A model generated the notes under the pieces. The model was given only the letters and a program-made list of their open reading frames with translations. It did no database searches and was not told the origin of the DNA. DNA of 58,237 nucleotides from an uncultured Gammaproteobacteria bacterium (GTDB lineage Bacteria > Patescibacteriota > Microgenomatia > Daviesbacterales > UBA10151), in assembly GCA_964432475.1 (NCBI GenBank), contig CAYSNN010000001.1, positions 1 through 58,237 of the forward strand, in the 5' to 3' direction. This document shows positions 5,370 through 25,631 of the stretch, piece by piece (the stretch's first letter is position 1; each line of letters starts with the position of its first letter). The translations under genes were made by a program, and so were the position numbers.

Positions 5370-6047
5370 TTATTTATCAAAAACTGCAAATACTTCTGTA
5401 TGATAAATCGTTTTTGGTAATATTAAAAAAACCAATTTTCTTACGATTTTTATTAAGATTTGAGGTGCCCTAAAAAGCGATAAAAAGATAGTTTCATTAT
5501 ATAAAGGATGAACAGATTTTATAAGTTTCAGTCTTAATCCTGCATCTTTTGCCAAACCCTGGATGCCTTTTTCTGTGTATTCTCTTTGGTGAGACTTATC
5601 TAAGTAATGTCTAAAAATTACTCCGCTTTGCTCAAGCTTTGAATCAACTGTTTTAGGAACAATTACCAAAATTCTTTTCTTTGTTACCCTTTTTGCCTCT
5701 GCTAAGATTTTTTTATCATCCCCATGCTCTAGAATATCAAATAAAAACGTTGTATCGAACTGTTTTTCTACAAAAGGTAAACTATCAGCTTTGGCTTTAA
5801 TAAAATTACCTTTTTTTGTCTTTTTTGCTTTTTCAATAAATTGGTTAACAAAATCTACTCCCGTAACATTAAATCCTAACAAACTAAGATAATCTACATA
5901 TGCTCCGGTTCCACAACCAATATCTAGGATACTTTTACCTTTGATAAACTTTTTAAGTAACAAAATCCTCTCTTTATCTAAATGGGAATCATCTGCCCAT
6001 CCCGATTTGGAAGCAAAGTCTGTATAGTATTTAGCCGACTTAATCAT
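5370..6047 (-). CDS. class I SAM-dependent methyltransferase
   Basis: Motif I is ILDIGCGTGAY, followed by VTGVDF and FDTTFLFDILEHG. Confidence 0.8.
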   Translation of the reverse strand: MIKSAKYYTDFASKSGWADDSHLDKERILLLKKFIKGKSILDIGCGTGAYVDYLSLLGFNVTGVDFVNQFIEKAKKTKKGNFIKAKADSLPFVEKQFDTTFLFDILEHGDDKKILAEAKRVTKKRILVIVPKTVDSKLEQSGVIFRHYLDKSHQREYTEKGIQGLAKDAGLRLKLIKSVHPLYNETIFLSLFRAPQILIKIVRKLVFLILPKTIYHTEVFAVFDK

Positions 6048-7269
6048 TTGAGGAAATTGATCTGTTTATAAACAAGAAAAGTAATCCCGTACTTAGAATG
6101 TCAGAAAAAACAGTTATCCAGGATGCAGCAATAAAACCATATTTAGGGATAAAGAACAAATTTGCGAAAATATTAAAACTTAGAGGAATTAAAGAAAATA
6201 ATATAACTTGTTTTAAATACTTATCCGATGAAAGCAAAACAGATGAGGCTGGTACATGAATAAACATGAAAGGAATTGCCAAAGAAAGTATCTGTATAAC
6301 TGCAATTGCAGGAAGATAATTTGGTAAAAATGTTCTAATTATCAAAGGTACAAAGAAAATAAAAACTGCTGTTATAAAAACTCCAAGCAAAAACATAAGT
6401 TTTGTGCTTTTTGCCAAAAGCTTTCTGATTTCTGAAGGATTATTTTTATGAAGATCTACAAATCGGGGGAAAAGGGCAAAACTTAAAGCATTAGGGATAA
6501 AAACTAAACTTTCCAAAAACTTGTATCCGGCTGCATAAATACCTGTCTCAAAATTTCCCTTAATATATGACAGTAAAACTGTATCAATTCTAAAATACAA
6601 TAGACCAAGTATGGCAAGCAGTCCATAAGGAAGCGACCCCCACAAAGCTTCTTTTAAAATAGACATCTTAACTTTTGATAATTTTATGCCAAAGGTAAGA
6701 AAAAGCAAAAATATTAAAACAACTGCAAAAATAAACTGACCAAAAATCACTGCATTAACTGCCCCAAAAACTGCAAATCCTTTACTAATAAGTATTAGTC
6801 CTAAAATTGCTGTTGAAATACTGGCAACAAAAGCTCCAACAGCAGAAAATTGTAATTTCTTTAAGGCTACAAATATTCCATCAAAAGTCACGGCAACAGC
6901 CTGAGGAAAAACCGCCAAAGCGGCAACCAGTATAATACTCACTCTCATCTTATCCGGATCAAAGAAATATAAAACAACCGAAAACACTGCAAAAAAGATT
7001 GAAATTAAAGTAAGCCGTAACATTAAAATATTACAGACTAACTCCCATGTCCTGGATCTTTCTTTTGCAACCTCACGAATTAAAAATCTGTTAAATCCAA
7101 AATCTGCCAAAGAAGAAATTATGGAAAAGTATGCAAGAGCCAAGGAATACAAACCAAAATCTAGAACTCCTAAACTTCTTGCTAAAAAAATTGTATAAAA
7201 AAACCCGATAATTCTTGTAACTACTTGAGCCACCAGCAACCAAGAAGTTTGCCTTAAAATCCCCTGCAT
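6040..7269 (-). CDS. Wzx-like polysaccharide flippase (MOP superfamily)
   Basis: 409 aa with about 12 TM helices and the N-terminus LVAQVVTRIIGFFYTIFLARSLG, typical of polysaccharide biosynthesis/Wzx proteins. Confidence 0.75.
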   Translation of the reverse strand: MQGILRQTSWLLVAQVVTRIIGFFYTIFLARSLGVLDFGLYSLALAYFSIISSLADFGFNRFLIREVAKERSRTWELVCNILMLRLTLISIFFAVFSVVLYFFDPDKMRVSIILVAALAVFPQAVAVTFDGIFVALKKLQFSAVGAFVASISTAILGLILISKGFAVFGAVNAVIFGQFIFAVVLIFLLFLTFGIKLSKVKMSILKEALWGSLPYGLLAILGLLYFRIDTVLLSYIKGNFETGIYAAGYKFLESLVFIPNALSFALFPRFVDLHKNNPSEIRKLLAKSTKLMFLLGVFITAVFIFFVPLIIRTFLPNYLPAIAVIQILSLAIPFMFIHVPASSVLLSSDKYLKQVILFSLIPLSFNIFANLFFIPKYGFIAASWITVFSDILSTGLLFLFINRSISSND

Positions 7270-7303: not shown

Positions 7304-7342
7304 ACCCACCCCAGGTGTGTCGTAGCCTGACACCTAAGGATA
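7304..7342 (+). repeat. REP-like 39-nt GC-rich hairpin element, copy A
   Basis: ACCCACCCCAGGTGTGTCGTAGCCTGACACCTAAGGATA. It is near-identical to the copies at 13545 and 25593. Hairpin is GTGTC-[GTAGCCT]-GACAC. Confidence 0.8.
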
Positions 7343-7362
7343 AGGTAGCTTTGCATATGATG

Positions 7363-7434
7363 TGGACGACGTTGGGATTGAACCAACGGCCTCCTCGATG
7401 TGAACGAGGCGCTCTACCGCTGAGCTAGTCGTCC
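7363..7434 (-). tRNA. tRNA-Val (anticodon CAC), CCA not encoded
   Basis: The reverse complement GGACGACTAGCTCAGCGGTAGAGCGCCTCGTTCACATCGAGGAGGCCGTTGGTTCAATCCCAACGTCGTCCA folds as a 72-nt cloverleaf. Anticodon arm is CCTCG-TTCACAT-CGAGG, T-arm GTTGG-TTCAATC-CCAAC. Confidence 0.92.
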
Positions 7435-9557: not shown

Positions 9558-10622
9558 TCAGTCAAAATCAATTTTCCTTTGAAACCTCGTAATGGAGGAG
9601 ACCAGTCCTAAACAAACTAAGGTCACAACCAAAGAGCTGCCTCCATAAGAGATAAGCGGTAAGGTTATTCCTGTTATAGGCAGTATTCCTAAATTCATAC
9701 CTACATTTACAAATATTTGAAAAAGCAGCATGGAAAAAACCCCCAGAGTCAATACAAAGCTAAGTCTATCCTCCACTTTATTCGCAATCCTTAAGCAAAC
9801 GGTTAGTAAATACCAGTAAATGGCAAGAATTACTATCGCACCCAAGAATCCCATCTCTTCCGCAATCGAGGCAAATATAAAATCAGTTCTAAATTCCGGC
9901 AAAAATTGTAAACGGGACTGAGTTCCCCTGCCTAACCCCCTACCTGTCAACTGTCCTGATCCTACTGCTATAGTGGATTGAATAAGATTATAACCGCTCC
10001 CCAGCGGGTCTGCTCCCGGAGTTAAAAATCCGGTAATTCTCTGTTTTTGATAATCTTGTAAAACCAACCAACTCAAGGGGATTATTAAGCTTGCAATCAA
10101 AATTAAGATTAAAATCTTCTTTATGGAAATCCGTGCTGCAAGCAGCATTCCAATCCAGATTGCCATAAGGGTTAAAGAAGATCCTAGATCAGGCTGTCTA
10201 AACACCAAAATTACAGGTGGAGCAACCCAAAGCAGACTTTTAAAAATATTAGTCCATGTCGGAGCATTTTTCTCCCAAAAAGAAGCAAGGGCCAAAAGCA
10301 AAACAGGCTTTGCAAATTCCGAAGGTTGGATATTAAAAAATCCAAGCGGTATCCATCTCACCGATCCCCGGGTTTCTATACCTAAAATAAGTACCACTAG
10401 CAAAAGTATAAGTGTCAAAATATATAAAGGATTTATAAGTCTTCTTAAAGACCCTAATCCTAAATGCGAAATAAATAAAAACAATGCAAACCCAAGTACT
10501 GTAAATATAAACTGCTGCAAGGCCAGTTCCAAAGAAGAAGAATAAATTACCAAGATCCCAATAGAAATTAAAAGCAAGCTTGACAAACTAATTGGCCAAT
10601 TAACGAAGTTTAATATTTTCAT
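9558..10622 (-). CDS. rodA: SEDS-family peptidoglycan glycosyltransferase, RodA-like
   Basis: FRQPDLGSSL, GSGYNLIQSTIAVGSGQLTGRGLG and PEFRTDFIFA are present. This is the second SEDS paralog, located outside the dcw cluster. Confidence 0.85.
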   Translation of the reverse strand: MKILNFVNWPISLSSLLLISIGILVIYSSSLELALQQFIFTVLGFALFLFISHLGLGSLRRLINPLYILTLILLLVVLILGIETRGSVRWIPLGFFNIQPSEFAKPVLLLALASFWEKNAPTWTNIFKSLLWVAPPVILVFRQPDLGSSLTLMAIWIGMLLAARISIKKILILILIASLIIPLSWLVLQDYQKQRITGFLTPGADPLGSGYNLIQSTIAVGSGQLTGRGLGRGTQSRLQFLPEFRTDFIFASIAEEMGFLGAIVILAIYWYLLTVCLRIANKVEDRLSFVLTLGVFSMLLFQIFVNVGMNLGILPITGITLPLISYGGSSLVVTLVCLGLVSSITRFQRKIDFD

Positions 10623-13544: not shown

Positions 13545-13583
13545 ACCCACCCCAGGGGTGTCGTAGGTTGACACCTAAGGATA
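13545..13583 (+). repeat. REP-like 39-nt GC-rich hairpin element, copy B, directly 5' of the RAYT-like gene
   Basis: ACCCACCCCAGGGGTGTCGTAGGTTGACACCTAAGGATA, with a perfect 6-bp stem GGTGTC-[GTAGGTT]-GACACC. Confidence 0.8.
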
Positions 13584-13603
13584 AACAACTTAAACTATAT
13601 TTA

Positions 13604-14278
13604 ATGCCCTATCGTAAAACCCCTTTGGTTACCGAACAGATCTATCACGTATTCAACAGAAGCGTTGCACGTCAGCCAATATTTTTGACCAATAGTGACT
13701 ATCAACGGGCACTAGCAGTTTTAGAGTATTATTGTTACTTTAAACCATCCTTAAGATTTTCACACTACAACCGCCTGCTCCAACCCTTTAAAGACGAATT
13801 TCGTAAAAACCTCAAGCAAAATAACGAGCACTCTATAAAACTGTTAGCATTCTGCTTCATGCCAAACCATGTACACTTTTTAATTAAAGAAATAAGAGAA
13901 AACGGTATAGCCGCTTTTATGAGTAATTTCCAAAACAGCTATGCAAAATACTTTAATCTTAAAAATGGTAGAACAGGGGCTTTATTTCAAGCTATGTTTA
14001 AAGCTGTTTTAATTGAAACCGATGAACAACTACTCCATGTAGTTCGATATATACACTTAAATCCCTTAACATCATTTATCCTGAAAAATATTGAAGACTT
14101 AGCAAAATACCCATGGTCTTCATTCCAAGAATATTTAGGCAAAAGCAAATGGAATATTGTAGATAAAGATTTTATCTTAAGCTTTTTTCCATCACTTAAG
14201 CATTTCATTGACTTTACTAAAGACCAAATAGACTACCAAAGGGAACTGGATAAAATTAAGCATTTAACTTTCGAATAA
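13604..14278 (+). CDS. HUH-Y1 transposase, IS200/COG1943 (REP-associated tyrosine transposase-like)
   Basis: HUH motif MPNHVHFLI, GRTGALFQAMFKAV, catalytic Tyr region VVRYIHLNPL and YPWSSF are present. The ATG at 13604 is preferred over the TTG at 13568, which lies inside the repeat. Confidence 0.85.
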   Translation: MPYRKTPLVTEQIYHVFNRSVARQPIFLTNSDYQRALAVLEYYCYFKPSLRFSHYNRLLQPFKDEFRKNLKQNNEHSIKLLAFCFMPNHVHFLIKEIRENGIAAFMSNFQNSYAKYFNLKNGRTGALFQAMFKAVLIETDEQLLHVVRYIHLNPLTSFILKNIEDLAKYPWSSFQEYLGKSKWNIVDKDFILSFFPSLKHFIDFTKDQIDYQRELDKIKHLTFE

Positions 14279-14316
14279 CCTAAAGATGCCTACCTTGTAC
14301 ACTCTTAGGGTGGGTT
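14279..14316 (-). repeat. degenerate inverted copy of the REP-like element, 3' of the RAYT-like gene
   Basis: The reverse complement reads AACCCACCCTAAGAGTGTACAAGGTAGGCATCTTTAGG. The ACCCACCC core is identical and GTGT, GTAGG and TAGG segments are retained. Identity is roughly two-thirds by eye and the stem is not preserved. Confidence 0.45.
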
Positions 14317-14407
14317 TATCTTTCATTGGTCTAGTTTTCTGATTTTCCCAACAGGAGGTTTTGGTATAGGCTTCCAGTTAGAATAGTCATTTCCTTCAAC
14401 CACTCTT

Positions 14408-14605
14408 TTAGGATCCTTCCACTATTTCTCTTTCCGTATTTATTTGTGCTGCTAGTTTATCGAGAGCTTCCATGATTGGTTTTGGAGGAATCTCTTGTAA
14501 TGAGCCTGTACCGGTAAATCCATTGAGATTTCCATTTTCATCAAGATTTGGGTAAACATCAATAGTGTCAACAAGCATTCCTGTTGTTCCTCTAATAGGG
14601 TCCAA
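14408..14605 (-). CDS. hypothetical small protein; lies in frame downstream of a TAA-terminated 15-codon ORF
   Basis: 65 codons from TTG. An internal ATG (MLVDTIDVY...) with AGAGGAA upstream is an alternative start. No family recognised. Confidence 0.35.
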   Translation of the reverse strand: MDPIRGTTGMLVDTIDVYPNLDENGNLNGFTGTGSLQEIPPKPIMEALDKLAAQINTEREIVEGS

Positions 14606-14653
14606 TTAACAAGAAGACTCACCCCCTTGATCTAAATTATGTTCTACAGCCAT
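14606..14653 (-). CDS. 15-codon mini-ORF (MAVEHNLDQGGESSC) with a strong RBS
   Basis: AAAGGAG lies 5 nt upstream of the ATG at 14653. The TAA at 14608-14606 is in frame with the following 65-codon ORF. Confidence 0.3.
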   Translation of the reverse strand: MAVEHNLDQGGESSC

Positions 14654-14680
14654 ATTTTCTCCTTTCAAAGATCTTTGTGA

Positions 14681-14709
14681 ATTATACAAAAAGCCCCTGT
14701 GTTAAGCAA
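14681..14709 (-). promoter_or_regulatory. strong sigma70-like promoter (TTGCTT-N17-TATAAT) for the small ORF pair
   Basis: The minus strand reads TTGCTT aacacaggggctttttg TATAAT, directly after the ftsZ stop. Confidence 0.55.
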
Positions 14710-14731
14710 ATAATCGATTAGTTTAACAAAC

Positions 14732-20291: not shown

Positions 20292-21295
20292 CTTGAAAGT
20301 AATGCTATCCAAAGACCAAATATTGCAAATAATCCCTGTGCTAACCAAAATCTAGTAACTATTTTCGGCTCTTCCCAACCAACATATTTAAAATACATAT
20401 GAATGGGGGAAACAGGCAGTATTTTTCTGTGTAAGAATTTCTTAGAGATTATCTGAATTAGTGAGGAGGAAACTATTATTACAAACATTCCGCCAATTAT
20501 AGCAAGAGCCAGTATCTTACCGGTTAAAAGTCCGACAACCGCAAGCGTTGCTCCAAATGCAAAAGAGCCGGCATCTCCTAAAAAAATCCTTGCCGGCCAG
20601 ATATTAAAATAAAGAAAAGAAAACAGCGCACCTATCCAAATACCAATAAATGAAGCAAGGGTTAAATCTAAAGATTGAGATGTAAGTGCCAGGAAAGCAA
20701 ATAAACAAATTAGCAAAAGACCGGCTGATAAGCCGTCTAATCCGTCAGAGATATTGTAGGCATTGGCAAAAGAAATAATCACAAAAGCAGCCAGCGGAAT
20801 ATACCAGCTATCTATAACAAAATTTCCTAAACCGGAAATATAGATATTATTTAACCCTCCCATAAAATAAAGCATACCAGCAACTGAAACAGATAACAGA
20901 AGCTGGATAATAAACATTTTCCTCCTTCCAAGACCGATAAACTTTCCTGACCTTTTTGTAATGATTAATTTAATATCGTCAATAAGTCCTAATAACCCGA
21001 ATGAAATAAGAGTAAATAGTAAGATTTTCAAACTAGTCCCATCAACCGAGGCATTAACTAATCCGTATCCAATACTTAAAATTATCAGAATTGAAATAAT
21101 CAAAATTCCCCCTCCGGACGGAGTAGCAATATCCGCTTTCATGAGCTTGTCATGAATTGGGGTTTCAGATTTTTTTAATTCATCAGAGCTTCTTTGGAAA
21201 CGCTTTTTTAAATAGTAAAGCAGATCTATAAACGGCACCATACAGACGGATGTTGCGGCAAATGATAATAAAACTAAACCTAAAAGCTGGGTCAT
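20288..21295 (-). CDS. mraY: phospho-N-acetylmuramoyl-pentapeptide transferase MraY
   Basis: ANAYNISDGLDGLSAGL and LGDAGSFAFGATLA motifs are present. Confidence 0.95.
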   Translation of the reverse strand: MTQLLGLVLLSFAATSVCMVPFIDLLYYLKKRFQRSSDELKKSETPIHDKLMKADIATPSGGGILIISILIILSIGYGLVNASVDGTSLKILLFTLISFGLLGLIDDIKLIITKRSGKFIGLGRRKMFIIQLLLSVSVAGMLYFMGGLNNIYISGLGNFVIDSWYIPLAAFVIISFANAYNISDGLDGLSAGLLLICLFAFLALTSQSLDLTLASFIGIWIGALFSFLYFNIWPARIFLGDAGSFAFGATLAVVGLLTGKILALAIIGGMFVIIVSSSLIQIISKKFLHRKILPVSPIHMYFKYVGWEEPKIVTRFWLAQGLFAIFGLWIALLSR

Positions 21296-25592: not shown

Positions 25593-25631
25593 ACCCACCC
25601 CCGGGGTGTCGTAGCCTGACACCTAAGGATA
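25593..25631 (+). repeat. REP-like 39-nt GC-rich hairpin element, copy C, between ftsI and murE
   Basis: ACCCACCCCCGGGGTGTCGTAGCCTGACACCTAAGGATA with stem GGTGTC-[GTAGCCT]-GACACC. It overlaps the last two codons and the TAG stop of ftsI. Confidence 0.8.

Follow-up and report, generated by a model that had tools for sequence, protein, structure and literature searches.

A probable TIRtron in Daviesbacteria: a Y1 HUH endonuclease gene within covarying terminal inverted repeats

Introduction

Canonical repetitive extragenic palindromic (REP) systems consist of tens to hundreds of dispersed REP or REPIN copies, often arranged as inverted pairs. The TnpAREP/RAYT protein of Escherichia coli and its REP/BIME partners were reportedly characterized by Nunvar in 2010 and by Ton-Hoang and Messing in 2012 (the latter with the structure PDB 4er8). 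A further arrangement is the TIRYT, a RAYT-like gene enclosed in long terminal inverted repeats (TIRs) to form a "TIRtron," which is sometimes accompanied by small families of solo TIRs (Di Nocera 2013, BMC Genomics 14:522, PMC3733652). Group 1 has been rated the most insertion sequence (IS)-like of the five groups of the RAYT clade; group 6 of the same study clusters with IS200 (Bertels 2017, PMC5581495). Group 1 has been equated with subclass 2.1 of the TnpA-Y1 proteins, which probably corresponds to the TIRYTs, pending confirmation (PMC6006769). The signature of this subclass comprises NHVH or NH[YF]H, W[EQ] or FQ, YIELNP or Y[IV]HLNP, and an SS tail, with a median length of 238 amino acids (aa) (Table 1, PMC6006769), and its distal C terminus carries a helix-turn-helix (HTH)-like domain (Bac_DnaA_C, HTH_23, or HTH_28), which is heterogeneous in group 2.1.2 (PMC6006769). 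No REPs or other DNA partner were found for subclass 2.1, and its GTAG-reading region was reported to be different (Quentin 2018, PMC6006769). Here we describe a transposase-like gene and its flanking repeats at positions 13545-14316 of a 58,237-nucleotide (nt) stretch of DNA (the window; contig CAYSNN010000001.1 of assembly GCA_964432475.1, placed by GTDB in the Daviesbacterales), which to the original prediction looked like a REP/RAYT pair in a CPR-like genome (CPR, candidate phyla radiation), with no earlier description known to it.

On the basis of the evidence below, we regard this unit as probably a TIRtron, i.e., the gene for a TIRYT-type Y1 HUH endonuclease lying within two 37-39-nt TIRs, and it looks to be of low activity or domesticated. 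It is a single-copy unit that has been kept between ileS and ftsZ through the divergence of Daviesbacteria. The claim of novelty appears to hold only for the CPR: systems of this kind have been known as TIRYTs or TIRtrons from work of 2013-2018, whereas the literature searched contained no description of one from the CPR, and both its presence and its detailed anatomy there appear to be undescribed in that literature.

The transposase gene and its product

The gene occupies 13604..14278 on the plus strand as an intact open reading frame (ORF) of 224 aa and is classified as a Y1 HUH tyrosine transposase-like gene of TnpA-Y1 subclass 2.1, the TIRYT type. Its product displays the motifs MPNHVHFLI, VVRYIHLNPL, GRTGALFQAMFKAV, GALFQAMF, and YPWSSF, the last being the tail; the predicted metal ligands are H89 and H91 (in NHVH), and the predicted catalytic tyrosine is Y149 (in RYIHLNP). 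These two histidines and the R148-Y149 pair are invariant across 30 homologues. The HUH and Tyr motifs had earlier led to the assignment of this ORF to the Y1_Tnp family, and a match to the corresponding Pfam profile (PF01797), with a score of 38.5 bits where the cut-off is 23 (E = 1.4e-9), bears this out. By motif comparison only, the protein agrees with the signature of subclass 2.1 at PNHVHF, LFQAMF, RYIHLNP, and YPWSSF. In the AlphaFold model, which has a mean predicted local distance difference test score of 84.7, residues 154-223 form only helices, with a long final helix at 198-223. A Foldseek search initiated with this model recovered E. coli TnpAREP (4er8) as the top match (E = 6e-6; template-modeling score of 0.64 on the target), followed by the TnpA proteins of ISDra2 and IS608 at about 1e-3 to 1e-2, and IS200 transposases were also matched. 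PDB searches by sequence alone gave weak matches (E of 0.14 with the single sequence and 0.014-0.07 with a profile). The Y---NP motif and the rank of 4er8 ahead of ISDra2 and IS608 thus support the predicted placement of the protein among the RAYT-like, and not the IS200-like, members of the Y1 family.

The homologues invariably begin with MPYRK or MSYRK, which argues for the ATG at 13604, not the TTG at 13568, as the start codon. The database gene call, P0101, is a 139-aa protein begun at the internal M86, and this explains why look-ups of the exact window protein, in 224- and 236-aa forms, returned no match. A search of the database retrieved 1755 relatives at E <= 1e-5; the best 120 of these are 58-75% identical to the window protein and nearly all 223-224 aa long, and the named sources among them are Daviesbacteria or Levybacteria. 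Among plasmids, the nearest tblastn match is from Pseudomonas aeruginosa (NZ_CP116719, WP_033954923; 28.7% identical in an alignment spanning 93% of the query, E = 1e-19), a protein with the motifs NHVH, WE, YIELNP, and YPWSSY. Its gene lies within perfect 32-nt TIRs containing GGGGACAG, an exact instance of GGGGWSAS, and the right TIR overlaps the stop codon. This P. aeruginosa unit is a textbook TIRtron, and its geometry is like that of the window unit. The GGGGWSAS sequence, which occurs in many but not all TIRs of TIRYTs, is approximated by GGGGTGTC in the window and also by GGGGTGGG, each matching 7 of 8 positions, and in most relatives by GGTGTGTC (6 of 8).

Repeat copies in the window

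The near-identical 39-nt copies that had been reported at 7304, 13545, and 25593 are all present on the plus strand with at most three mismatches, and not one match arose in 100 shuffles. A weight matrix derived from 22 copies of the family detected exactly four sites in the window, scoring 63.0, 61.5, 61.1, and 28.4 bits, where shuffled sequence reached 1.9 bits at best. The fourth is an inverted copy at 14279-14315, directly 3' of the stop codon, where a degenerate inverted copy had likewise been noticed. It scores better as a right-type than as a left-type repeat and retains 15.5 bits with the window copies removed from the matrix, and on this account it is a real but decayed copy.

The left TIR of the unit spans 13545..13583 (plus strand) and contains three arms: a, CACCCC (13549-13554); b, GGGGTGTC (13556-13563); and c, GACACC (13570-13575). 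In 10 related loci, a left copy is found equally far from the ATG. The right TIR, the decayed inverted copy, spans 14279..14316 (minus strand), reads ACCCACCCTAAGAGTGTACAAGGTAGGCATCTTTAGG as its reverse complement, and has intact equivalents in relatives. In the window it has lost the GGTGTC/GACACC stem; its arm c is broken, and its arm b shows one mismatch to arm a. Despite this decay, the ORF is intact and all of its catalytic residues are conserved. We also considered the right TIR as a transcription terminator; it is terminator-like in the window, but its relatives lack a consistent T-run, and this interpretation was rejected. A known RNA family was likewise discarded as an explanation, since an Rfam scan of the window retrieved its two tRNAs only.

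Repeat anatomy across the family

The 22 family copies (9 left, 10 right, and 3 solo) align without gaps. At the 10 related loci (individual loci are designated by L numbers), the layout is uniform: a 37-nt left repeat that starts with ACCCAC, about 20 nt, the ATG, 223-224 codons, the stop codon, and then the right inverted repeat. Both ends were found at nine of these loci and the left end only at L010. Well-kept ends are exemplified by L004, with ACCCACACCAGGTGTGTCGTAGCTTGACACATACGG at the left and, as the reverse complement, ACCCACACCAGGTGTGTGCTAGGTAGACACATAAGG at the right. Bracketing by inverted repeats is therefore a family trait, of which the window right end is a decayed example.

Across the family, the three arms take the forms CACMCC (a), GGKGTG(TC) (b), and GACACM (c), with b complementary to both a and c, so that pairing of arm b with either partner is predicted to give two alternative hairpins, i.e., overlapping palindromes. 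The perfect hairpin GGTGTC-N7-GACACC, proposed earlier, thus exists, but it is thermodynamically unremarkable as single-stranded DNA (z of -0.2 to -0.9) and is overlapped by a second palindrome, CACCCC-N-GGGGTG. We accordingly assessed the hairpins by covariation in place of thermodynamics, with the proviso that the two ends of one element and the related lineages are not independent. The a/b pairing (P1) is maintained in 97.7% of cells, with compensatory change in three of its six pairs, and the b/c pairing with its outer CC/GG (P2) in 89%, with compensatory change in four of eight; when the partner columns are slid as a control, pairing falls to 22-69%. The P1 variants include CACACC/GGTGTG, CACCCC/GGGGTG, CACCCT/AGGGTG, and CATGCC/GGCATG, and all three arms vary in concert between lineages.

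Some left ends show further elaboration. At L007 (9924-9978) the left end has an extra inverted arm upstream (GGGTGTCAAGCATGTACACCCC / AGGGGTGTGATGAATTGACACC), matched by the matrix on the minus strand at 24.4 bits, and looks like an overlapping REPIN-like inverted dimer. Partial tandem duplications of the outer TIR tip or the adjacent sequence lie just outside the left repeats of three loci: CTACCCACCC occurs twice at about 5700-5735 of L016, ACACCCACACCAG twice at 6096-6125 of L011, and the 14-nt CTAATTCTAACCCC twice at 5850-5894 of L001, beside a solo copy. Repeated rounds of cutting and religation at the tip may have left these traces.

Solo copies

The remaining two window copies are solos, both of which score as left type; none is paired within the 58 kb. 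E1 (7304..7342, plus strand) lies between a tRNA-Val(CAC) gene (7362-7434, minus strand) and the 5' end of a gene for polysaccharide synthesis (6040-7269, minus strand). E3 (25593..25631, plus strand) lies between the gene for an ftsI-like penicillin-binding protein, whose stop codon overlaps it, and the start of a murE-like gene. Both are oriented as the left TIR, and with only two of them no strand bias can be claimed (p = 0.25). Most of the related 20-kb loci have no solo, and a metagenome scan yielded four gene-adjacent copies against one solo, indicating that solos are rare and unpaired, unlike a REP population. A scan of species-representative genomes with the repeat, in a set that does not include the genome of the window, returned a single match, in a Candidatus Daviesbacteria metagenome-assembled genome.

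The spacer that houses E1 measures 92 nt in the window and 22 nt, without the element, in L002. The orthologous site likewise lacks a copy in L004 and L010, which indicates that E1 is a gain specific to the lineage of the window. At the E3 site, a copy upstream of murE is present in the window, in L001/L014, and in L022 and absent from L023, L024, and L025; the copies of the three lineages that have one are about 89% identical, and the adjoining spacer has diverged. L014 and the TIRtron of L011 are on one contig. Solos share the arm variant of the TIRs of their own genome (CACCCC/GGGGTG in the window and CACACC/GGTGTG on contig Ga0209343_10000882), which suggests that the solos are still coupled to the resident protein, that gene conversion has taken place, or that they were inserted independently at a hot spot.

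In the same region upstream of murE, L022 has a related three-arm element with other arms (CTAACCCC-A-GGGGTTAA-CTAGCTTC-AAACCCC; 9880-9916, minus strand) beside its solo at 9932-9968, and remnants of the first arm of this element occur at the equivalent spot in L001; repeats of several families may share this position as a hot spot of insertion. Different extra genes also separate ftsI from murE, namely, a UbiE-type methyltransferase gene in L022 (9105-9869) and a gene for a PHP-domain protein in L023 (9152-9922), suggesting that this junction tolerates or attracts insertions. Elsewhere, L013 has a degenerate right-type solo at 1809-1845 (20.8 bits), about 1 kb downstream of its TIRtron.

The GTAG tetranucleotide and the REP/RAYT reading

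The original prediction noted a conserved GTAG in the repeats and set it beside the GTAG of enterobacterial REPs, which is recognized by the RAYT. The tetranucleotide is indeed conserved within the close Daviesbacteria copies and lies in the 7-nt loop of P2. At the same position, L007 has GATGAAT, L015 GTTAGCT, L016 ACTAGCT, and L020 GAATACG, and given these replacements GTAG is not the recognition signal of the family.

If the unit were a canonical REP/RAYT system (a REPtron), the 39-nt elements would be REPs read via GTAG and spread in high copy number by the RAYT. Several features recall such a system: structured repeats in inverted orientation bracket the gene, at 10 related loci as well as in the window, and solos occur elsewhere, with at least one lineage-specific gain; the solos covary with the resident flanking copy; the protein has the class-2 Y---NP motif, with TnpAREP as its top structural match; and it partially matches the NCBIfam REP_Tyr_transpos profile (NF047646; E = 5e-14). 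That match, however, scores 52.3 bits and falls under the cut-off of 80. Moreover, the GTAG is located in the loop instead of 5' of the stem foot and is unconserved in the four loci above, FQ replaces WQ, and no REPs are known for subclass 2.1 from the work of Quentin et al. The window has just two solos in 58 kb and no REPIN or BIME pair, and the metagenome scan also favors gene-adjacent copies over solos. The pairing of a RAYT-like gene with inverted repeats that are also found alone thus stands, but it is not a canonical REP system: membership fails by the NCBIfam cut-off, by the position and conservation of GTAG, by the GTAG-reading residues, and, as far as visible, by copy number and pairing. 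We hence consider a REPtron distinctly unlikely and a TIRtron the better description.

A predicted promoter within the left repeat

The left TIR also appears to supply the promoter of the gene. A predicted sigma-70-type promoter at 13568..13596 (plus strand), with 10 of 12 consensus matches, is made up of a -35 element, TTGACA (13568-13573), inside the left TIR, a 17-nt spacer, and a -10 element, TAAACT (13591-13596), with the ATG 7 nt further on. The TTGACA is present in 10 of 10 left repeats, starting 35-38 nt before the ATG, whereas the right repeats have TAGACA there. At the 10 loci, a -10-like hexamer follows 16-18 nt after the TTGACA and ends 5-9 nt before the ATG. Given the gap of only 7 nt between the -10 element and the ATG in the window, the transposase mRNA is probably leaderless, starting at or beside the ATG; such a layout would also explain why the automatic gene call P0101 starts at Met86.

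An alternative is that the repeat is a host cis-regulatory site, such as an operator or promoter for the minus-strand polysaccharide gene, ileS, and murE, to which the transposase is linked only incidentally. Each of the three plus-strand copies is indeed found 31-46 nt ahead of an ATG on the minus strand, by the extended -10 boxes TGATATAAT and TGATACAAT, and the copy upstream of murE has been kept in three lineages while its spacer diverged. Yet the spacing to the -10 box or ATG varies (31, 34, or 46 nt for the window copies, about 55 nt for that of L001), copies come and go between close lineages that have the same promoters, and the repeat does not include the ileS promoter (TAGCCT-17-TAAAAT), which is also intact where the site is empty. 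In addition, the repeat accompanies the transposase into the recA/recX and NUDIX/UbiA contexts, always in the form of an inverted pair with constant spacing to the ATG and the stop codon. We therefore rejected the host promoter or operator reading as highly improbable, with its variable spacing, the same promoters at empty sites, and the travel of the repeat with the transposase.

Genomic context and mobility

In the window and in the related loci L002/L003, L004-L006, L010, L011, L012, and L015, i.e., in seven lineages, the transposase gene is situated between ileS and ftsZ and is encoded on the strand opposite to theirs. Relatives with this gene order are 59-78% identical to the window in IleRS and 83-88% identical in FtsZ. 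Two other Daviesbacteria loci, L022 and L024, have an empty ftsZ-ileS site (20850-20925 and 20885-20965, respectively), where AACCGCTAGCCT contains both the ftsZ stop codon and, overlapping it, the ileS -35 region. The insertion in L011 is flanked by a 10-bp duplication, CTAACCGCTA, whose copies do not abut the TIR tips but lie beyond them by 14 and 28 nt (L011 5280-5324 and 6096-6185). When compared with the empty sites, this 10-bp sequence proves to be a copy of the overlap of the ftsZ stop with the ileS -35 region, whereby both the ftsZ end and the ileS promoter have been preserved. The duplication and the empty sites together indicate that the filled state is derived. In other Microgenomates the gene occurs in the contexts recA-recX (L007) and NUDIX-UbiA (L016) and beside a tRNA-synthetase gene (L020).

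These observations bear on whether the unit is an autonomous, still active IS with TIRs that moves as a whole, its solos being the scars of deleted insertions. Consistent with this are the unrelated contexts in different Microgenomates, the empty ftsZ-ileS sites of some Daviesbacteria, the duplication flanking the L011 insertion, the poor correlation between transposase and IleRS identities, and the standing of RAYT group 1 as the most IS-like group (PMC5581495). Against it, one insertion site is common to seven lineages that span 59-78% IleRS identity, each identical protein was seen in a single context, on as many as 24 contigs, and the homologues differ by 25-40%, with no near-identical copies. 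None of the loci retrieved has two copies of the family; the second Y1 gene of L004 is a different paralogue, with no TIRs of the studied family seen on reading its flanks, where a repeat search was not run. Finally, the right TIR of the window has decayed while the ORF and its catalytic residues remain intact. An active IS is therefore an unlikely description of the unit, and we retain the low-activity TIRtron as the preferred one.

Several points weigh against the TIRtron reading or parts of it. In the 224-aa protein, no second Pfam domain, including a C-terminal HTH, was detected at E up to 0.1. The folding energies of the repeats as single-stranded DNA are no better than those of shuffles (z of +0.5 to -1.1). 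The three-way covariation of the arms could equally reflect three double-stranded sites of one coevolving protein instead of hairpins, and, given the nonindependence of ends and lineages, the shuffle statistics overstate the support. Target duplications are not normally made by Y1 transposases, and the 10-bp duplication at L011 is thus unexpected for such an enzyme. Transposase identity, moreover, does not rank with IleRS identity (L011, 61% versus 78%; L015, 75% for the transposase), and for this reason purely vertical descent is not established.

The paralogue mentioned above, a 231-aa Y1_Tnp protein (Pfam E = 2.5e-12) encoded at L004 16092-16787 and also in L005, lies between murG and ftsW in the division and cell wall (dcw) cluster; the window has no gene at this position. 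Between the right TIR and ftsZ, the window has a stretch of about 415 nt (14317-14731) with only a 65-aa ORF that has no Pfam match. The corresponding gap contains a codirectional ORF of 151-257 aa in L002, L004, and L015 (that of L002 having no Pfam match) and is only 16 nt in L011. No counterpart of this ORF was detectable at 14317-14731 of the window, and this segment may represent an eroded gene. The GC skew of the plus strand is negative across the entire window (1-58237; -0.06 to -0.25). With the plus strand C-rich throughout, the minus strand is the leading strand, and the transposase gene, one of the few exceptions to the nearly exclusive minus-strand orientation of genes from 8 kb onward, is head-on to replication.

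Proposed mechanism and significance

By analogy to TnpAREP and IS608 TnpA, the protein probably binds the repeat hairpins where DNA is single-stranded, as at replication forks. Cutting and rejoining of DNA beside the hairpins would proceed through a 5'-phosphotyrosine intermediate at Y149, and H89 and H91 would coordinate the metal. This activity now seems rare, with an occasional copying or transfer of one left-type repeat and a far less frequent one of the entire unit; with its right end decayed, the window copy is probably immobile as a whole unit. As the TTGACA of the left repeat is predicted to be the -35 element of the gene, binding of the protein there would also repress its own leaderless transcript.

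A further possibility is a domesticated TIRYT, vertically inherited in Daviesbacteria beside the dcw cluster, whose protein still recognizes the three-arm repeat. The few solos, retained upstream of murE in three lineages and covarying with the resident TIR, would then be maintained binding sites and not selfish debris, and the protein would act on the chromosome through them. We deem this version in its entirety unlikely. If true, such a protein might function in, for instance, fork-associated processing of single-stranded DNA or the control of operon boundaries in a streamlined genome.

Although the kind of system is not new, the long retention of the unit in extremely gene-dense CPR genomes bears on the question of domestication. 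RAYT group 1, or subclass 2.1, is the largest RAYT group, and its function is a question that the CPR family helps test. The family offers a compact case, with a short protein, a 37-nt covarying repeat, a built-in promoter, filled and empty sites, and few solos, and as such provides specific oligonucleotide substrates and predictions as to what TIRYTs bind and cut.

Comparison with known systems

The unit shares with the IS200/IS605 TnpA proteins (IS608, ISDra2) the HUH/Y1 fold and the catalytic residues, and its ends, like theirs, are expected to be recognized as single-stranded hairpins. Those elements are typified by a TnpA of about 150 aa with a Y---Q motif, multiple near-identical copies, direct subterminal hairpins, and often a tnpB gene. 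The window unit instead combines YIHLNP and a length of 224 aa with one copy per locus, homologues that are 58-75% identical, inverted repeats, and no tnpB nearby.

With the E. coli TnpAREP REPtron, the unit has in common the closest solved structure, the class-2 Y---NP motif, a single-copy gene between inverted structured repeats that are also found elsewhere in the genome, and an apparent coevolution of repeat and protein. It differs in that the foot of the hairpin in the window repeats lacks a 5' GT[AG]G guide. In addition, FQ aligns at the WQ of the E. coli protein, whose GTAG readers, W94, Q95, and R104, are absent here. Further, the repeats are few and not in the hundreds, REPIN or BIME pairs are absent from the window, and the protein is about 60 aa longer.

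The closest likeness is to the TIRtrons. In both, a low-copy gene set within long TIRs, as opposed to GTAG-bearing REPs, encodes an RAYT-like Y1 HUH protein whose length is about 225-240 aa and whose motifs are NHVH, FQ (or W[EQ]), Y[IV]HLNP, and a WSS tail; the right TIR abuts or overlaps the stop codon. Small families of solo TIRs in some genomes and the double palindromes of some TIRs are also common to both. The differences lie in the host, which here belongs to the CPR/Patescibacteria (Daviesbacteria and other Microgenomates) and was outside the surveys of 2013-2018, in the TIR sequence, and in the short 224-aa form of the window protein, in which an HTH is undetected. Three characteristics are apparently unreported for TIRtrons: the three covarying arms, the -35 element within the left TIR with its leaderless layout, and the long syntenic retention beside the dcw cluster.

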